Shown: positions 18,983-26,955, counted from the first letter of the stretch. The stretch is 64,000 bases of DNA from Candidatus Palauibacter sp. (GCF_965237495.1 NZ_OZ250143.1:1866130-1930129); one strand, 5' to 3'. Numbers and translations are program-made. Notes: generated by a model from the letters alone, not told the origin.

Positions 18983-19735
18983 CTAGCGGGGCGGCAGCAG
19001 TTCGTCCAGGTAGCGGAGCAGCATGTTGCGCCATGTGGGCCAGTCGTGGTGCCAGTCTTCGCCCCAGTCGTCCACCCGGTTCGGCACGCCCTTCCCGCCC
19101 AGCCGCGACGCCATGCGCCACGATTCGTCGATGTCCTCGGCGCGCCCGCGTCCTGACGCGAAGAGGGCGAACCGTTCCCGCAGCCGGTCGAGCGTCTCAC
19201 CCGTGAGATCCGGCAGGTAGTGCAGAGGGGACGCGTGGTAGAAGTCTTCCGTGATCCCCGCCCGAATCCCGGTCTCGTGCTTCAGGAACCGCTCCAGGTC
19301 GTAGGTCCCGCTCATGCAGAGCGCGTGCGAGAAGGCGTCCGGGAAGCGGCACAGCATGGCCAGCGCGTGGAAGGCCCCGATGGAGGATCCCGCCGCCATC
19401 ACGTCGATCGACGGGTCGTTGCAGTCGTCCTGGATCCAGGGGACGAACTCGTAGCCGACGAAATCCTGGAATCGGTTGAGCACGCGCATGCGGTGCTCGG
19501 GCGTCCCCTCCTGGCCGAGCATGGCGCGTCCGGCCACGCTGTCGCACGAATAGACCTTGAGACGACCGTCCGTGAGGTAGTCCGCCACCGTGTCGATGAC
19601 GAGGAAGCGCTCGATCTCCTCCGCGTCGCCGGCGGCGGTGGGGAACATGAGGAGGGGGACGCCGACCTCGCCCCAGCGGACGACGTCGACTTCCTGCTCG
19701 AGACGGTCCGACCACCAGCTGGCGATGAGTTTCAT
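18983..19735 (-). CDS. alpha/beta-hydrolase esterase (PF00756-like)
   Basis: Start ATG (cat 19733-35) overlapping the upstream stop (ATGA); MKLIASWW...; GxSxG as AGSSIGAF; 250 aa. Confidence 0.6.
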   Translation of the reverse strand: MKLIASWWSDRLEQEVDVVRWGEVGVPLLMFPTAAGDAEEIERFLVIDTVADYLTDGRLKVYSCDSVAGRAMLGQEGTPEHRMRVLNRFQDFVGYEFVPWIQDDCNDPSIDVMAAGSSIGAFHALAMLCRFPDAFSHALCMSGTYDLERFLKHETGIRAGITEDFYHASPLHYLPDLTGETLDRLRERFALFASGRGRAEDIDESWRMASRLGGKGVPNRVDDWGEDWHHDWPTWRNMLLRYLDELLPPR

Positions 19736-21018
19736 GACGCGAGGATGGGTACGCTGCCGGGCGGCTCTTCCCGCCGGGCCGCCTGGATGCGGTTGAAGAG
19801 GAGATCTGTAAACTCGTCGATCTCGTGATCCGGGTACAGCGACGACACCTTCACGTGGACCGCGTCGCGGGCCGCCTCGCTGCCGAAGAACTCGTCGGCC
19901 ACCTCGTCGAGCTGGCCGAGGTGCGTCTCGCAGAAATCCACGAAGCGGTCGGTCTCCAGGCGCGCCTCGGCGATTTCGCCGCAGACCCGCATCCTCTCCT
20001 CCGGCGTCATCCCGGCGCGGCACGCGTCGAAGAACGGTTGCCAGTCAAGGTTGATGCGCATTCGCCTCCGGGTCGCCGCGCAGAAGATGGACCAGCGGAT
20101 ATTCGCCTTGATGAGCCACGGAAAATGATAGTGGAGCGACGTGACCTGGGAATCCGGGCACGGGTTCGCGAAGTCGATCGGTATCCACCGCCCGCCGCTG
20201 CGGAGGGCTTCGCAGGAGTTGAAGTCCCACCCGAAGAAGGCGTTGATCGTGAGCGTCATGTCGCGGATCTCGCGGGCGTCGCTCGCGCCGAGAAAATCCC
20301 GCTCGAGGGTGTACCGGTCGTGCTGCGGGGCGCCGGGGTCGTAGAGAACGGCGCGCGTCTGTGGTCCCAGCCCGACGCAGCGGACGAAGCGGTCGTACGC
20401 TTCCACGCCCCGCTGCAGGTGCATGACGAACTTGCCGCTCTCGTCGTAGGCGGCCTGCAGCGCCTCGTCGTCCTCGATCCGCGAGACCCCGCGCCAGCCC
20501 CCGCCGTCGTAGGGCTTCATGAAGACGGGATATCCGAGATCGCGCGCCACTTCCCGGAGATCGAACAGCCGCGCGTAGCGCCGAAGGGTGACGGCCAGGT
20601 CGTCTTTCGGCTCGTACGACTTGGGCGGGATCAGCCAGGTCCGCGGCACCGGGAGACCCAGCCGCATCATGGCGCAGTAGGTGGAGTGCTTCTCCATCGA
20701 CTGGACGCTCCACGGGTTGTTGAACACGTAGAGGTCGTCCATGACGACGCACTTCTTGATCCACTCGCGCGTCGGGAAGTACCAGCGCGTGAGGCGGTCG
20801 ATGACGAGGTCGTATCTCACCGGCTTCTGAATGTCGAAAGGCTCGATCGTGACGTCCTCGACCTGGAACCGGAGGGTGCCATCCGGGGAGGGAATCCGGA
20901 GGTCCAGCCGCCGGAGGATCTCGCGATAGGCGATGGGCCAGCAGAGGTCCGCCCCGAGGGAGAGCCCGATGCGGCGCGTGACTTCGGGCGCCGGGGTGGC
21001 GGCTCGAGGGGGGGTCAT
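19732..21018 (-). CDS. ATP-grasp domain protein (divergent fourth member of the cluster)
   Basis: GYPVFMKPYDGGGWRGVSRIEDDEALQAAY; ...WIPIDFANPCPD; start ATG (cat 21016-18) overlapping the upstream stop. Confidence 0.55.
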   Translation of the reverse strand: MTPPRAATPAPEVTRRIGLSLGADLCWPIAYREILRRLDLRIPSPDGTLRFQVEDVTIEPFDIQKPVRYDLVIDRLTRWYFPTREWIKKCVVMDDLYVFNNPWSVQSMEKHSTYCAMMRLGLPVPRTWLIPPKSYEPKDDLAVTLRRYARLFDLREVARDLGYPVFMKPYDGGGWRGVSRIEDDEALQAAYDESGKFVMHLQRGVEAYDRFVRCVGLGPQTRAVLYDPGAPQHDRYTLERDFLGASDAREIRDMTLTINAFFGWDFNSCEALRSGGRWIPIDFANPCPDSQVTSLHYHFPWLIKANIRWSIFCAATRRRMRINLDWQPFFDACRAGMTPEERMRVCGEIAEARLETDRFVDFCETHLGQLDEVADEFFGSEAARDAVHVKVSSLYPDHEIDEFTDLLFNRIQAARREEPPGSVPILAS

Positions 21019-25741: not shown

Positions 25742-26955
25742 ACGTACTCATGATTTCGCCGGGGTATCCGGCCGAGATGCAGTATTTCACGCGCGGCCTC
25801 GCCGAGGTGGGCGCGACCGTGATCGGGCTCGGGGACCAGCCGGGGTCCGCGCTGCCGGAGATCGCCCGGGCGAGCGTGTCGACGCATGTGCAGGTGCGGT
25901 CGCTTGCCGACGAGGCCGACGTAATCCGGCAGGTGGCCGCGTTCGCGGCCAGGACCCGCGTCGACCGCGTGGAGTGCCTGTGGGAGCCCTACATGATCCT
26001 CGCCGCGCGCCTGCGCGAGATGCTGGGCGTCCCCGGGCCGACGGTCGAGCAGACGCTCCCCTTCCGCGACAAGGAGATCATGAAGGACGTGCTCGACGCG
26101 GCCGGAATCCGGACGCCGCGCCACGGGCGAGCCTCGAGCGTCGCGGAGTGCCGCGAGGTCGCCGACGGGGTCGGCTTCCCGCTCATCGTGAAGCCCGTGG
26201 CGGGGGCGGGATCGGCCGACACCTACAGGGTCGATTCCGCGCGCGACCTCGAGCGCGTGCTCCCCGCCCTGCGCCACGTGCCCCAGGTCACGGTGGAGGA
26301 ATTCATCGAGGGCGAGGACATGACCTTCGACACCGTCACCGTGGGCGGCGTCGTGGCCCACTACAACATGTGCCGCTACTGGCCGCGGGCGCTCGAGTCG
26401 AAGACCCACGAGTGGCTGAGCCCCGTCACCTACGCGCTGCGCGATGTGGAGGCCGACGACCTCGCCCCCGGCCGCGAGATGGGCTTCGCCGTGCTCGACG
26501 CGCTCGGCTTCGACACCGGCTACACACACATGGAGTGGTACCGGACCGCGGACGGCGAAGCCGTGTTCGGGGAGATCGGCGCCCGGCCGCCGGGGGTGCG
26601 GACCGTCGACCTGATCAATTTCGCGAGCGACATCGACACGTACCGCGGGTGGGCGGAAGGCGTGGTCCACGCGAGGTGGTCGCAGCCCGTGGAGCGGAAG
26701 TACAACGCGTGCTGGATCGTGAAGCGTGCGCGCGGCCAGGGCCGGATCGAACGCATCGAGGGGCTGGGACCCCTGCTGCAGGAGTACGGCCACCGGGTGT
26801 GCAGCCTGGACCTCCTCCCGATCGGCGCGCCCCGCCGCAACTGGAAGGCGACGCTCGTCTCCGACGGGATGATCTTCCTCCGACACCCCGACCTGGAGAC
26901 GCTGGAGGCGATCGCCGCGGAGTTCTCGACCCGACTCCAGCTCTACGCCGCCTGA
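25738..26955 (+). CDS. ATP-grasp ligase, paralog 3
   Basis: ATG overlapping the upstream stop (ATGA); MNVLMISPGYP...; GFPLIVKPVAGAGSADTYRV; EEFIEGEDMTFD; HMEWYRTADGEAVFGEIGARPPG; 405 aa. Confidence 0.7.
   Translation: MNVLMISPGYPAEMQYFTRGLAEVGATVIGLGDQPGSALPEIARASVSTHVQVRSLADEADVIRQVAAFAARTRVDRVECLWEPYMILAARLREMLGVPGPTVEQTLPFRDKEIMKDVLDAAGIRTPRHGRASSVAECREVADGVGFPLIVKPVAGAGSADTYRVDSARDLERVLPALRHVPQVTVEEFIEGEDMTFDTVTVGGVVAHYNMCRYWPRALESKTHEWLSPVTYALRDVEADDLAPGREMGFAVLDALGFDTGYTHMEWYRTADGEAVFGEIGARPPGVRTVDLINFASDIDTYRGWAEGVVHARWSQPVERKYNACWIVKRARGQGRIERIEGLGPLLQEYGHRVCSLDLLPIGAPRRNWKATLVSDGMIFLRHPDLETLEAIAAEFSTRLQLYAA

Follow-up and report, generated by a model that had tools for sequence, protein, structure and literature searches.

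A cluster of seven genes (G1 to G7), encoding four ATP-grasp ligases, an S51-type hydrolase and two esterases, lies inside the glycogen locus of Candidatus Palauibacter sp. (Gemmatimonadota), at positions 18983-26955 of the 64,000-nt window analysed here. All positions are those of this window unless another locus is named. The enzymes of bacterial glycogen metabolism are viewed as a closed set, comprising GlgC, GlgA, GlgB, GlgP and GlgX, plus GlgE and the GH57 variants. The enzymes of the cluster are of known kinds, but their combination in a glycogen operon is undescribed and widely conserved: in other phyla, glycogen synthase (glgA) and branching enzyme (glgB) genes are co-oriented with the ATP-grasp genes, often 0-10 nt away from them. 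Neither full-text literature searches nor the Palauibacterales genome paper yielded a description of the gene set, or of glycogen operons that contain ATP-grasp genes. The explanation favoured here, to which we give about even confidence, is that the cluster forms a module that builds and takes apart an amino-acid-derived oligomer, through amide and ester bonds, in step with glycogen.

Relatives of G4 were found in at least 573 species-representative genomes by scanning one genome per species with a G4 profile. The best 80 loci were kept and cover about eight phyla, with 21 loci from Acidobacteriota, 16 from Myxococcota, 14 from Planctomycetota, 13 from Gemmatimonadota and seven from Eisenbacteria; Krumholzibacteriota, Chloroflexota and Actinomycetota contribute one each, two are of uncertain placement and four are unclassified. 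The seven proteins and the glycogen enzymes were mapped onto these loci by tblastn, and 43 loci had enough flanking sequence. Among these well-flanked loci, G3 stands next to G4 in 41, G2 occurs in 34, G1 in 32, the three L-amino-acid-ligase-like (Lal-like) genes G5, G6 and G7 together in 23, and the complete set of seven in 18. The G4-G3 pair is the constant core, adjacent in 72 loci, and reduced forms consist of G4-G3-G2 (L055, L056, L072), of G4-G3 (L042, L071) or, in Acidobacteriota, of G4-G3-G1 without G2. Outside Gemmatimonadota, the median identity of the cluster proteins to the window copies is 43-63% (63% for G5, 60% for G2, 56% for G3 and 54% for G1). The same gene set in the same order across phyla is more than chance would produce. 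A preliminary description of the window, made from its sequence alone, had proposed a synteny search for the joint occurrence of ATP-grasp, S51 and esterase genes, and this co-occurrence is strongly borne out across the species-representative loci.

The link with glycogen metabolism is recurrent too. At least one glycogen gene lies within 10 kb of the cluster in 31 of the 43 well-flanked loci, and all 18 seven-gene loci of this set have one. If genomes are taken to measure 4-8 Mb and to contain one to three glycogen loci, chance alone would be estimated to produce such proximity in no more than a few percent of cases. The association tracks the Lal-like genes in particular: glycogen genes accompany 28 of the 33 loci with Lal-like genes, compared with three of the ten loci without them (Fisher p = 0.002). 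In an Eisenbacteria locus (L003), a Joint Genome Institute (JGI) metagenome locus (L087) and two further loci (L086, L005), the cluster and the glycogen genes form a single divergent layout, in which G6, G7 and glgB are read in this order in one direction and glgA, G5, G4, G3, G2 and G1 in the other. In L003 and L087 glgA and G5 overlap by a few bases, as do G7 and glgB, and in 25 loci glgA is directly followed by a same-strand G5, with a median gap of about 8 nt. The embedded GlgA copies are bona fide, scoring 518-549 bits against TIGR02095 (cut-off 328) and 461-476 bits against NF001899 (cut-off 459) in L003, L087 and L005. A specialised GlgA paralogue was considered for them, but they pass the GlgA models. 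They are about 53% identical to each other and about 36% identical to the GlgA of the window; sequence comparison suggests that the window glgA may be a different lineage of the same enzyme. Elsewhere the arrangement depends on the lineage: in Gemmatimonadota, as in the window, the alpha-glucan phosphorylase gene glgP stands beside the cluster, in Planctomycetota glgC and a glycogen debranching enzyme gene lie downstream, and in Thermoanaerobaculia glgA is convergent. Since the arrangement varies by lineage and proximity nevertheless persists, selection is indicated rather than inheritance of one frozen operon. The tie to storage metabolism that had been suggested from the window is thus much stronger than could be seen there, with glgA and glgB co-oriented and tightly spaced with the cluster in other loci.

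In the window, the cluster is flanked by glgP on one side and by glgB, glgA and a GH57 gene on the other. The G+C content is about 70% over the window, and third-position values of 0.85-0.96 single out one coding frame per gene from 18983 to 26955; start codons and gene junctions were read directly from the sequence. On the minus strand the lead gene is G5 (23158-24381; 407 residues), a Lal-like ATP-grasp. It is followed by G4 (22211-23161; 316 residues), an S51-type, class I glutamine-amidotransferase-like hydrolase with a helical hairpin insert, by G3 (21015-22202; 395 residues), a Fes-like esterase with Enterochelin_N and PF00756 domains, and by G2 (19732-21018; 428 residues), an ATP-grasp of a distinct and highly conserved clade. 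The final gene of this operon is G1 (18983-19735; 250 residues), a small alpha/beta serine hydrolase of the PF00756 "putative esterase" family. On the plus strand, G6 (24518-25741; 407 residues) and G7 (25738-26955; 405 residues) encode the other two Lal-like ATP-grasps. The two operons diverge from a 136-nt spacer (24382-24517), presumed to be the promoter region. A coupled seven-gene cluster around this spacer had been described from the outset, and the coding frames and junctions, which show seven tightly packed, intact genes, bear this out, as the Pfam and fold matches do for the assignment of the products to ATP-grasp, S51 and PF00756 families. ATGA overlaps number four in total, three on the minus strand (G5/G4, G3/G2 and G2/G1) and one on the plus strand (G6/G7); the plus-strand overlap had been correctly noted, while four had been counted on the minus strand, where G4 and G3 are in fact separated by an 8-nt gap (TAG...ATG). 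The nearest public proteins are 96-99% identical and come from Candidatus Palauibacter (Gemmatimonadota, order Palauibacterales). Public databases give the cluster proteins either generic names ("ATP-grasp domain-containing protein", "Type 1 glutamine amidotransferase-like") or, with PurT, PurK and CarB, wrong ones.

G5, G6 and G7 are L-amino-acid-ligase-like proteins by sequence, with ATPgrasp_N plus ATP-grasp architecture and L-amino acid ligases (Lals) as their nearest characterised relatives, and are accordingly predicted to act as ligases. G5 and G6 match PF02222 ATP-grasp with 37.9 and 44.3 bits (cut-off 27), and G7 matches PF18130 ATPgrasp_N with 31.4 bits (cut-off 27). The nearest solved structures of all three are RizA (4WD3) and BL00235 (3VOT), followed by BacD (3VMM), with E-values from 4e-16 to 1e-11. 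The ATP-grasp part of PRK02186 is matched by G6 with 90 bits, against a cut-off of 625. The homologues of G5, G6 and G7 separate into three clean orthogroups, with G6 in orthogroup 1 and G7 in orthogroup 3; 30 loci carry one member of each and none carries two of the same group. The triplication must therefore be old, every copy having been retained for its own job. In this respect the three proteins, of about 405 residues each, differ from the known Lals with which they share their architecture: they form three ancient orthogroups across phyla, beside glycogen genes, whereas known Lals occur in antibiotic clusters such as those for rhizocticin and bacilysin. The sequence motifs by which the three paralogs were originally grouped are roughly right, except that G5 reads GYPLIVKP instead of GFPLIVKP and that the third motif deviates at a single residue or position in both G5 and G7.

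Housekeeping ATP-grasp families (PurK, PurT, PurD, Ddl, RimK, LysX, CarB, AccC) were considered for the cluster ligases and rejected, as the scores fall about 6- to 40-fold under the curated NCBIfam cut-offs. The purK model gives 35-36 bits (cut-off 318), purT 36.6 (502), rimK_fam at most 29.8 (143) and the Ddl models less than 42 (243-457), with at most 39.6 for Ddl TIGR01205 (246). Automatic JGI names of G5 homologues, such as [quoted passage not shown], "carbamoylphosphate synthase large subunit" and "NCAIR synthetase", are contradicted by these curated-model scores.

The fourth ligase, G2, is of another kind. No Pfam family matches it above cut-off, and by sequence it shows a sub-threshold Ddl match. 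Its AlphaFold2 model (pLDDT, the predicted local distance difference test, of 78) consists of an ATP-grasp core and a C-terminal helical domain, and the nucleotide- and metal-binding residues (Lys/Glu/Asp/Asn) are invariant in 55 sequences. The closest folds include RimK, ArgX and LysX, while synapsin and the inositol-phosphate kinase ITPK1 score equal to RimK. On the predicted fold, G2 is an ATP-grasp of a RimK/LysX/ArgX/synapsin-like clade. It differs from RimK, LysX, ArgX and the synapsin C domain in its additional C-terminal helical domain and in scores far under the family cut-offs (LysX 26.6 bits compared with 275.6; rimK_fam 16.1 compared with 143.4). Unlike RimK and LysX, it has no S6 or LysW-like partner gene and is paired with an S51 hydrolase. 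Its description as a fourth, divergent ATP-grasp, marked by the motif DFANPCPD (exact in G2), holds as to fold; rather than a diverged version of G5, G6 or G7, however, it represents a different clade that is ancestrally paired with the S51 protein.

That partner, G4, matches PF03575 Peptidase_S51 with 25.1 bits (cut-off 23.9), and its AlphaFold2 model (pLDDT 91.9) shows an S51 fold split by a helical hairpin of about 110 residues (residues ~65-173). The top PDB folds are cyanophycinase (3EN0, 7UQW), pseudo-CphB (7UQV) and PepE, and 6A4R also matches. Ser211, found in all 42 sequences compared, lines up with the nucleophile of S51 enzymes, a Ser in a G-x-S-A-G elbow, and with the Ser of Deinococcus PepE. 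The canonical His253 is found in 34 of the 42, with Asp, Asn or Ser in the other eight, while His225-Asp226 of the motif LFHD is invariant in all 42; the catalytic base of this subfamily may thus have moved, to judge from the alignment. As modelled, G4 is an S51-family fold with an intact nucleophile and is predicted to be active. It is set apart from cyanophycinase by the hairpin and by a canonical His that is not strictly conserved.

The association between G2 and G4 reaches beyond the seven-gene cluster. Distant G2 relatives, with 35-40% identity, directly follow an S51 protein of 464-486 residues in otherwise unrelated loci. The S51 protein of L091, the one compared, aligns with G4 at 26% identity over 226 residues (E = 3e-10), through both the helical insert and the catalytic core. 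This recurring pairing indicates that a G2-type ligase and a hairpin-bearing S51 hydrolase form an old functional pair, like cphA/cphB, around which the esterases and Lal-like genes were added. In two unrelated metagenomic contexts, the two-gene units have DUF3806 and HEAT-repeat genes divergently upstream, and a different distant G2 relative has a MATCAP-family (tubulin tyrosine carboxypeptidase-like) gene two genes away. From their gene content, these distant loci (L090, 5305-7991; L091, 6540-9230; L089, 4118-7837) look like further ligase/peptidase systems.

Both esterases belong to PF00756. G3 matches this family with 77.8 bits and additionally carries an Enterochelin_N domain; against the enterochelin esterase model NF007758 it reaches 111.5 bits, with a cut-off of 222. 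Its top PDB match is Fes (2B20, E = 2.6e-19), followed by CE1 esterases with an isoamylase-N/CBM48 domain. All 72 sequences keep Ser270 and Glu340, and 71 of them keep His369, with a gap in the remaining one. The N-domain matches Enterochelin_N in 46 of 46 sequences. CBM_20 (15 of 46, best E = 0.0017), CBM_48 (four of 46, best 0.0009) and GlgB_N (two of 46), all sub-threshold, are its sole recurrent secondary Pfam families, with 21 matches in the 46 sequences. A further peculiarity of G3 is its C-terminal tail, ...FPGPLW(M/L)VYE, encoded by the last 9-10 codons (21015-21044, minus strand). Tyr394 is kept in 71 and Glu395 in 68 of 72 sequences across the sampled phyla, and the tail is equally invariant in loci without G2 (L015, L019, L020, L016). 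It directly follows the His369 catalytic segment and may be simply structural.

G1 scores 35 bits against PF00756, and the search by sequence found no PDB relative. Ser118 in a G-x-S-x-G motif, Glu200 and His230 are invariant in 46 sequences (the window and 45 loci), and Asp231 occurs in 45 of them. Since the Ser, His and acidic residues are kept in both esterases, G1 and G3 look active. G3 shares with Fes and IroD the layout of an Enterochelin_N beta-sandwich followed by PF00756; Fes cleaves aminoacyl (seryl) ester bonds. It differs from them by a score under the family cut-off, by its unique invariant tail and by the lack of adjacent siderophore synthesis or uptake genes. A Fes equivalog in a siderophore cluster was rejected on this score and because no nonribosomal peptide synthetase (NRPS), TonB receptor or transport genes are conserved nearby. 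A like succession of beta-sandwich and PF00756 domains is found in CE1 esterases with an N-terminal CBM48 (7B5V, 6RZO, 6MOU, 6NE9), which remove ester substituents from polysaccharide. The likeness of G3 to these enzymes is weaker than that to Fes, and they are secreted, xylan-active feruloyl or acetyl esterases, whereas G3 has no visible signal peptide and lies in a glycogen locus.

The divergent spacer was aligned between the window and seven related Gemmatimonadota loci, six of them from Palauibacter. The start codons of both G5 and G6 are kept in all seven, and three blocks are conserved between them: GGGCTGGCG..GAG, ACTGTAC(A/T)AT and AAAGTGAAG. The second resembles an extended -10 element in sequence, and the blocks are candidate promoter or operator elements for both operons. 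A consensus promoter scan gave no match in the 136-nt spacer, and Rfam and terminator/promoter scans of the cluster returned nothing relevant. In sister genomes, non-triplet indels disrupt the reading frame of an in-frame ATG upstream of G5; as it is not kept in frame in the relatives, there is no conserved small open reading frame (ORF) at this site. Spacer alignment and reading of the junctions likewise found no conserved small ORF, so that the short precursor which the preliminary description had proposed to look for was not recovered. A precursor of a peptide that is made on the ribosome and modified after translation (RiPP), or of a carrier protein, in the spacer or at the junctions was rejected on this basis. 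The same applies to a graspetide or microviridin-type RiPP system, for which ORF clustering also showed no extra small family. The graspetide ligases PsnB and MdnC rank below RimK as fold matches of G2.

Several phyla carry accessory genes after G1, namely a GCS2 (Glu-Cys-ligase family 2) gene fused to CBS, followed by an AstE/AspA-type deacylase gene (L003, 12119-17938; L087, 12051-14862; also L017, L030, L032, L033, L043, L053 and L079). GCS2-CBS and AstE genes occur in seven of the 43 well-flanked loci. In L003, the stretch between G3 and G2 also holds a gene of the GGACT (gamma-glutamyl cyclotransferase-like) kind; the window has none of these accessory genes. Unbiased ORF clustering of the loci, cluttered by GC-rich shadow ORFs, revealed no other widely conserved family and no conserved transporter, exporter or redox gene. 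No signal peptide or membrane segment was seen by eye in the seven proteins; given this and the lack of a conserved transporter, the module is predicted to be cytoplasmic and not exported. Gene fusions were not found in about 80 loci or among 120 G5 homologues: an apparent G3-G2 fusion (P0349) is a frameshift-ridden read-through, and a G2-G1 fusion of 723 residues (P0159) comes from a contig with 1.6x coverage and may reflect a lost stop codon. PADLOC defence models gave zero matches to the seven proteins and to a neighbouring leucine-rich-repeat protein, by which a known anti-phage defence system was ruled out.

In the proposed scheme, the module would belong to the glycogen operon as an accessory, and its expression would be locked to that of glycogen synthase and branching enzyme. 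Its substrates, bond types, order of steps and any contact with glycogen are drawn from the chemistry of the enzyme families. Each of G5, G6 and G7 would convert a carboxylate into an acyl-phosphate and couple it with an amine or a hydroxyl, giving three different ligations in a set order; a further residue, probably an acidic one, would be added or extended by G2. Esters are known products of ATP-grasps of the VanA and microviridin types. G4 would cleave the amide bond made by G2-type ligases, by analogy after an Asp-like residue, as characterised S51 enzymes cleave after an Asp-type residue. G3 and G1 would cleave ester bonds in, or anchoring, the product; PF00756 members cleave esters or transfer them, Fes acting on seryl esters, antigen 85 and CE1 enzymes on sugar esters, and S-formylglutathione hydrolase on thioesters. 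The synthesis and turnover of an amino-acid-derived oligomer, first proposed on the basis of the window, is in this way partly supported, as a deduction from enzyme families.

Within this oligomer model, the specific version preferred here, though with a confidence well below even, is that the ester bonds are to the glucan itself. The ligases would then write aminoacyl or peptidyl esters on alpha-glucan hydroxyls, and G3 would erase them, its beta-sandwich N-domain docking on the glucan. The two conserved esterases imply ester bonds of some kind if their sequences are a guide, and the CE1-CBM48-like domain layout of G3, with the faint similarity of its N-domain to CBM_20, CBM_48 and GlgB_N, is consistent with a glucan as the partner; it is also the ligase genes that track the glycogen genes. 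A "peptido-glycogen" can be envisaged, again tentatively, in which amino acids or a short peptide esterified to glucose hydroxyls would store nitrogen or charge, to be stripped and recycled by G3, G1 and G4 ahead of glycogen breakdown or in its course. The phosphate esters of starch and glycogen (glucan water dikinase, laforin-type phosphatases) and the D-alanyl esters of teichoic acids (Dlt) offer an analogy of writer and eraser alone, as their enzyme families are unrelated. In these systems a small ester substituent is put on a polymer by an enzyme that uses ATP and is taken off again by a hydrolase of its own, which tunes solubility, charge or turnover.

Several observations weigh against a module that serves glycogen. 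The window itself lacks the layout with an embedded glgA, its glgB and glgA being 4-6 kb off, beyond an inserted leucine-rich-repeat gene. Twelve of the 43 well-flanked loci have no glycogen gene within 10 kb, nor does a complete seven-gene Myxococcales locus that was fetched separately (L001). The G4/G2 pair occurs without glycogen genes among the distant relatives, and the reduced variants of the cluster indicate that its chemistry is modular. Tight spacing with glgA and glgB, moreover, proves co-expression and not a common substrate. As to esters on the glucan, we know of no ATP-grasp enzyme that esterifies a polysaccharide, and a literature search found no report of amino-acid esters on glycogen. 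G3 is closer to Fes, which is not a carbohydrate esterase, than to the CE1 enzymes, and an hhalign comparison of its N-domain with the CBM48 of GlgB was not significant (probability 0.05%).

About equally likely as esters on the glucan is a free storage or buffer compound, soluble or granular, such as an oligo- or poly(amino acid) or a depsipeptide, which would serve as a cyanophycin-like reserve of nitrogen or of acidic residues and be mobilised by G4, G3 and G1; sharing an operon would then only coordinate carbon and nitrogen reserves. The top structural matches of G4, cyanophycinase and PepE, would fit such a reserve. So would the recurrence of the S51 protein and a G2-like ligase as a pair on their own, as pairs of synthetase and hydrolase are typical of reserve polymers (cphA/cphB), and glycogen operons too hold both synthetic and degradative genes (in the window, glgP). 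The accessory GCS2-CBS, AstE/AspA and GGACT genes of some loci point to Glu/Asp-type chemistry. A free polymer would leave the two conserved esterases without an obvious role unless it has ester bonds, and three non-interchangeable Lal-like orthogroups fit a defined oligomer better than a homopolymer; that glycogen genes follow the Lal-like genes in particular also speaks against it. The cyanophycin system itself (CphA1 and CphB) resembles the module in that an ATP-grasp ligase and an S51 hydrolase are encoded together, in the cytoplasm and in a storage setting; the module differs in its four separate ligases, its two esterases and its link with glgA and glgB. CphA1 was rejected as an identity for the cluster ligases, which have about 405 residues and no Mur-ligase-type domain and score 27-39 bits against TIGR02068 and NF010623 (cut-offs 850-877). 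Comparative-genomics surveys of ATP-grasp, GCS2 and AstE-like genes have reportedly described neighbourhoods in which ATP-grasp and GCS2-type ligases stand together with peptidases or deacylases, with peptides as their predicted products. The logic of ligase plus peptidase is alike in those neighbourhoods, and a GCS2-CBS and AstE pair accompanies the present cluster in some phyla.

A pathway to a small molecule, for instance a peptide-type osmolyte or a low-molecular-weight thiol whose pool is balanced against glycogen, is rather unlikely. The PF00756 proteins would serve as esterases or thioesterases for its conjugates and G4 as its peptidase, in line with a weak match of G3 to the S-formylglutathione hydrolase model (E = 0.003; the enzyme belongs to PF00756). 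Lal enzymes normally make small peptides, GCS2-CBS and GGACT genes accompany the cluster in some phyla, and a gene of the alanine/glycine:cation symporter family (Na_Ala_symp) neighbours the Gemmatimonadota loci. Yet GCS2-CBS and AstE are confined to a minority of loci, redox and exporter genes are not conserved, and the tight spacing with glgB and the beta-sandwich domain of G3 would be left unexplained. Less probable still is a modification of protein tails, in which G2, and perhaps other ligases, would add amino acids to a C-terminal Glu and the hydrolases would trim them. RimK, ArgX and LysX, among the closest folds of G2, act on protein C-terminal Glu, and the near-invariant ...PLW(M/L)VYE end of G3 would be a candidate target, the more so as the G3 stop overlaps the G2 start; one distant G2 relative is also located near the MATCAP-family carboxypeptidase gene mentioned above. 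The invariance of the tail in loci without G2 speaks against G2 acting on it, and its position directly after the His369 segment allows a structural role. Neither ORF clustering nor the spacer alignment revealed a conserved gene for a small carrier protein, and the fold, for which synapsin and ITPK1 match G2 as well as RimK does, gives no preference to protein ligases.

It is very improbable that the cluster serves secondary metabolism, be it a Lal-built antimetabolite with S51-mediated self-resistance or a catechol-ester siderophore with a Fes-like esterase, and stands near glycogen genes by chance. The characterised Lals RizA and BacD do make antibiotic peptides, and enterochelin esterase is the best named relative of G3. 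S51 peptidases confer self-resistance to microcin C-like compounds, according to one report (PMC9239234). Opposed to this are the high identity outside Gemmatimonadota, the same order in hundreds of species and the recurrence of the glgA/glgB linkage despite rearrangements; conserved genes for an NRPS, an exporter, a TonB receptor or a precursor are lacking, and G3 falls under the Fes cut-off. Ordinary housekeeping ATP-grasp genes placed by accident beside unrelated hydrolases can be practically dismissed. Some automatic annotations do call the G5 homologues PurT, PurK or CarB, but this reading is refuted by model scores that all lie far under the cut-offs and by the conserved synteny; the cluster ligases are thus neither members of the housekeeping families nor free of a conserved association with S51 and esterase genes, the two findings that would have undone the original proposal.

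Returning to the oligomer made in step with glycogen, esters on the glucan would add a new class to the covalent modifications of glycogen, and the ligases would be the first ATP-grasp enzymes with a polysaccharide as their target. Otherwise, the product would be a second reserve compound or a regulator made stoichiometrically with glycogen, which would be new too. In either case, canonical glgA and glgB are tied to seven enzymes of amino-acid and ester chemistry, mostly in groups that are uncultured and abundant (Acidobacteriota, Planctomycetota, Myxococcota, Gemmatimonadota), and the public annotations PurT, PurK and CarB of G5-type ligases are corrected.

The glycogen genes of the window extend on both sides of the cluster. 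The DUF3417-type alpha-glucan phosphorylase gene glgP (16825-18945, plus strand; PF11897, PF00343) is convergent with G1 across a 37-nt gap. On the far side of G7, the space from 27116 to 30805 (plus strand) encodes a protein of 1229 residues with many leucine-rich repeats and a weak M66-peptidase-like segment. Among six Palauibacter loci, this gene was detected in L006 and L011 and not in L008-L010, where glgB adjoins G7; apparently a lineage-specific insertion has split the glycogen locus here. The branching enzyme gene glgB follows (minus strand, 30857-33196 as limits of the longest ORF; CBM_48, Alpha-amylase and Alpha-amylase_C domains). Its true start is probably below 33021, because the longest ORF would otherwise overlap glgA, which encodes a glycogen synthase of the ADP-glucose type (33021-34472, plus strand; TIGR02095 486 bits, cut-off 328). 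A GH57/DUF3536 alpha-glucan enzyme (34375-35949 as ORF limits, plus strand; PF03065, PF12055) is encoded next.

Other features of the window lie further away. A row of DUF4129, DUF4350 and MoxR-type AAA+ ATPase genes (42442-45487, plus strand), with a gene for an RDD/SpoIIM-domain membrane protein further on (minus strand), appears unrelated to the cluster. A low-GC island at 10244-12483 (plus strand; 0.52-0.61 compared with about 0.69) carries genes for a DNA methyltransferase (N6_N4_Mtase/UPF0020) and a Bpu10I-type restriction endonuclease (PF09549, 285 bits). It is flanked by genes for PadR-family regulators (9265-10176 and 13715-14293) and is probably a horizontally acquired restriction-modification system. 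At 293-366 (minus strand), an Rfam SAM_alpha (SAM-II) riboswitch scores 48.9 bits (gathering score 36) and abuts and, by the ORF limits, overlaps the 5' end of an ORF (1-312, minus strand) with a homocysteine S-methyltransferase domain at the start of its product. SAM_alpha takes its name from Alphaproteobacteria, but the host here belongs to Gemmatimonadota.

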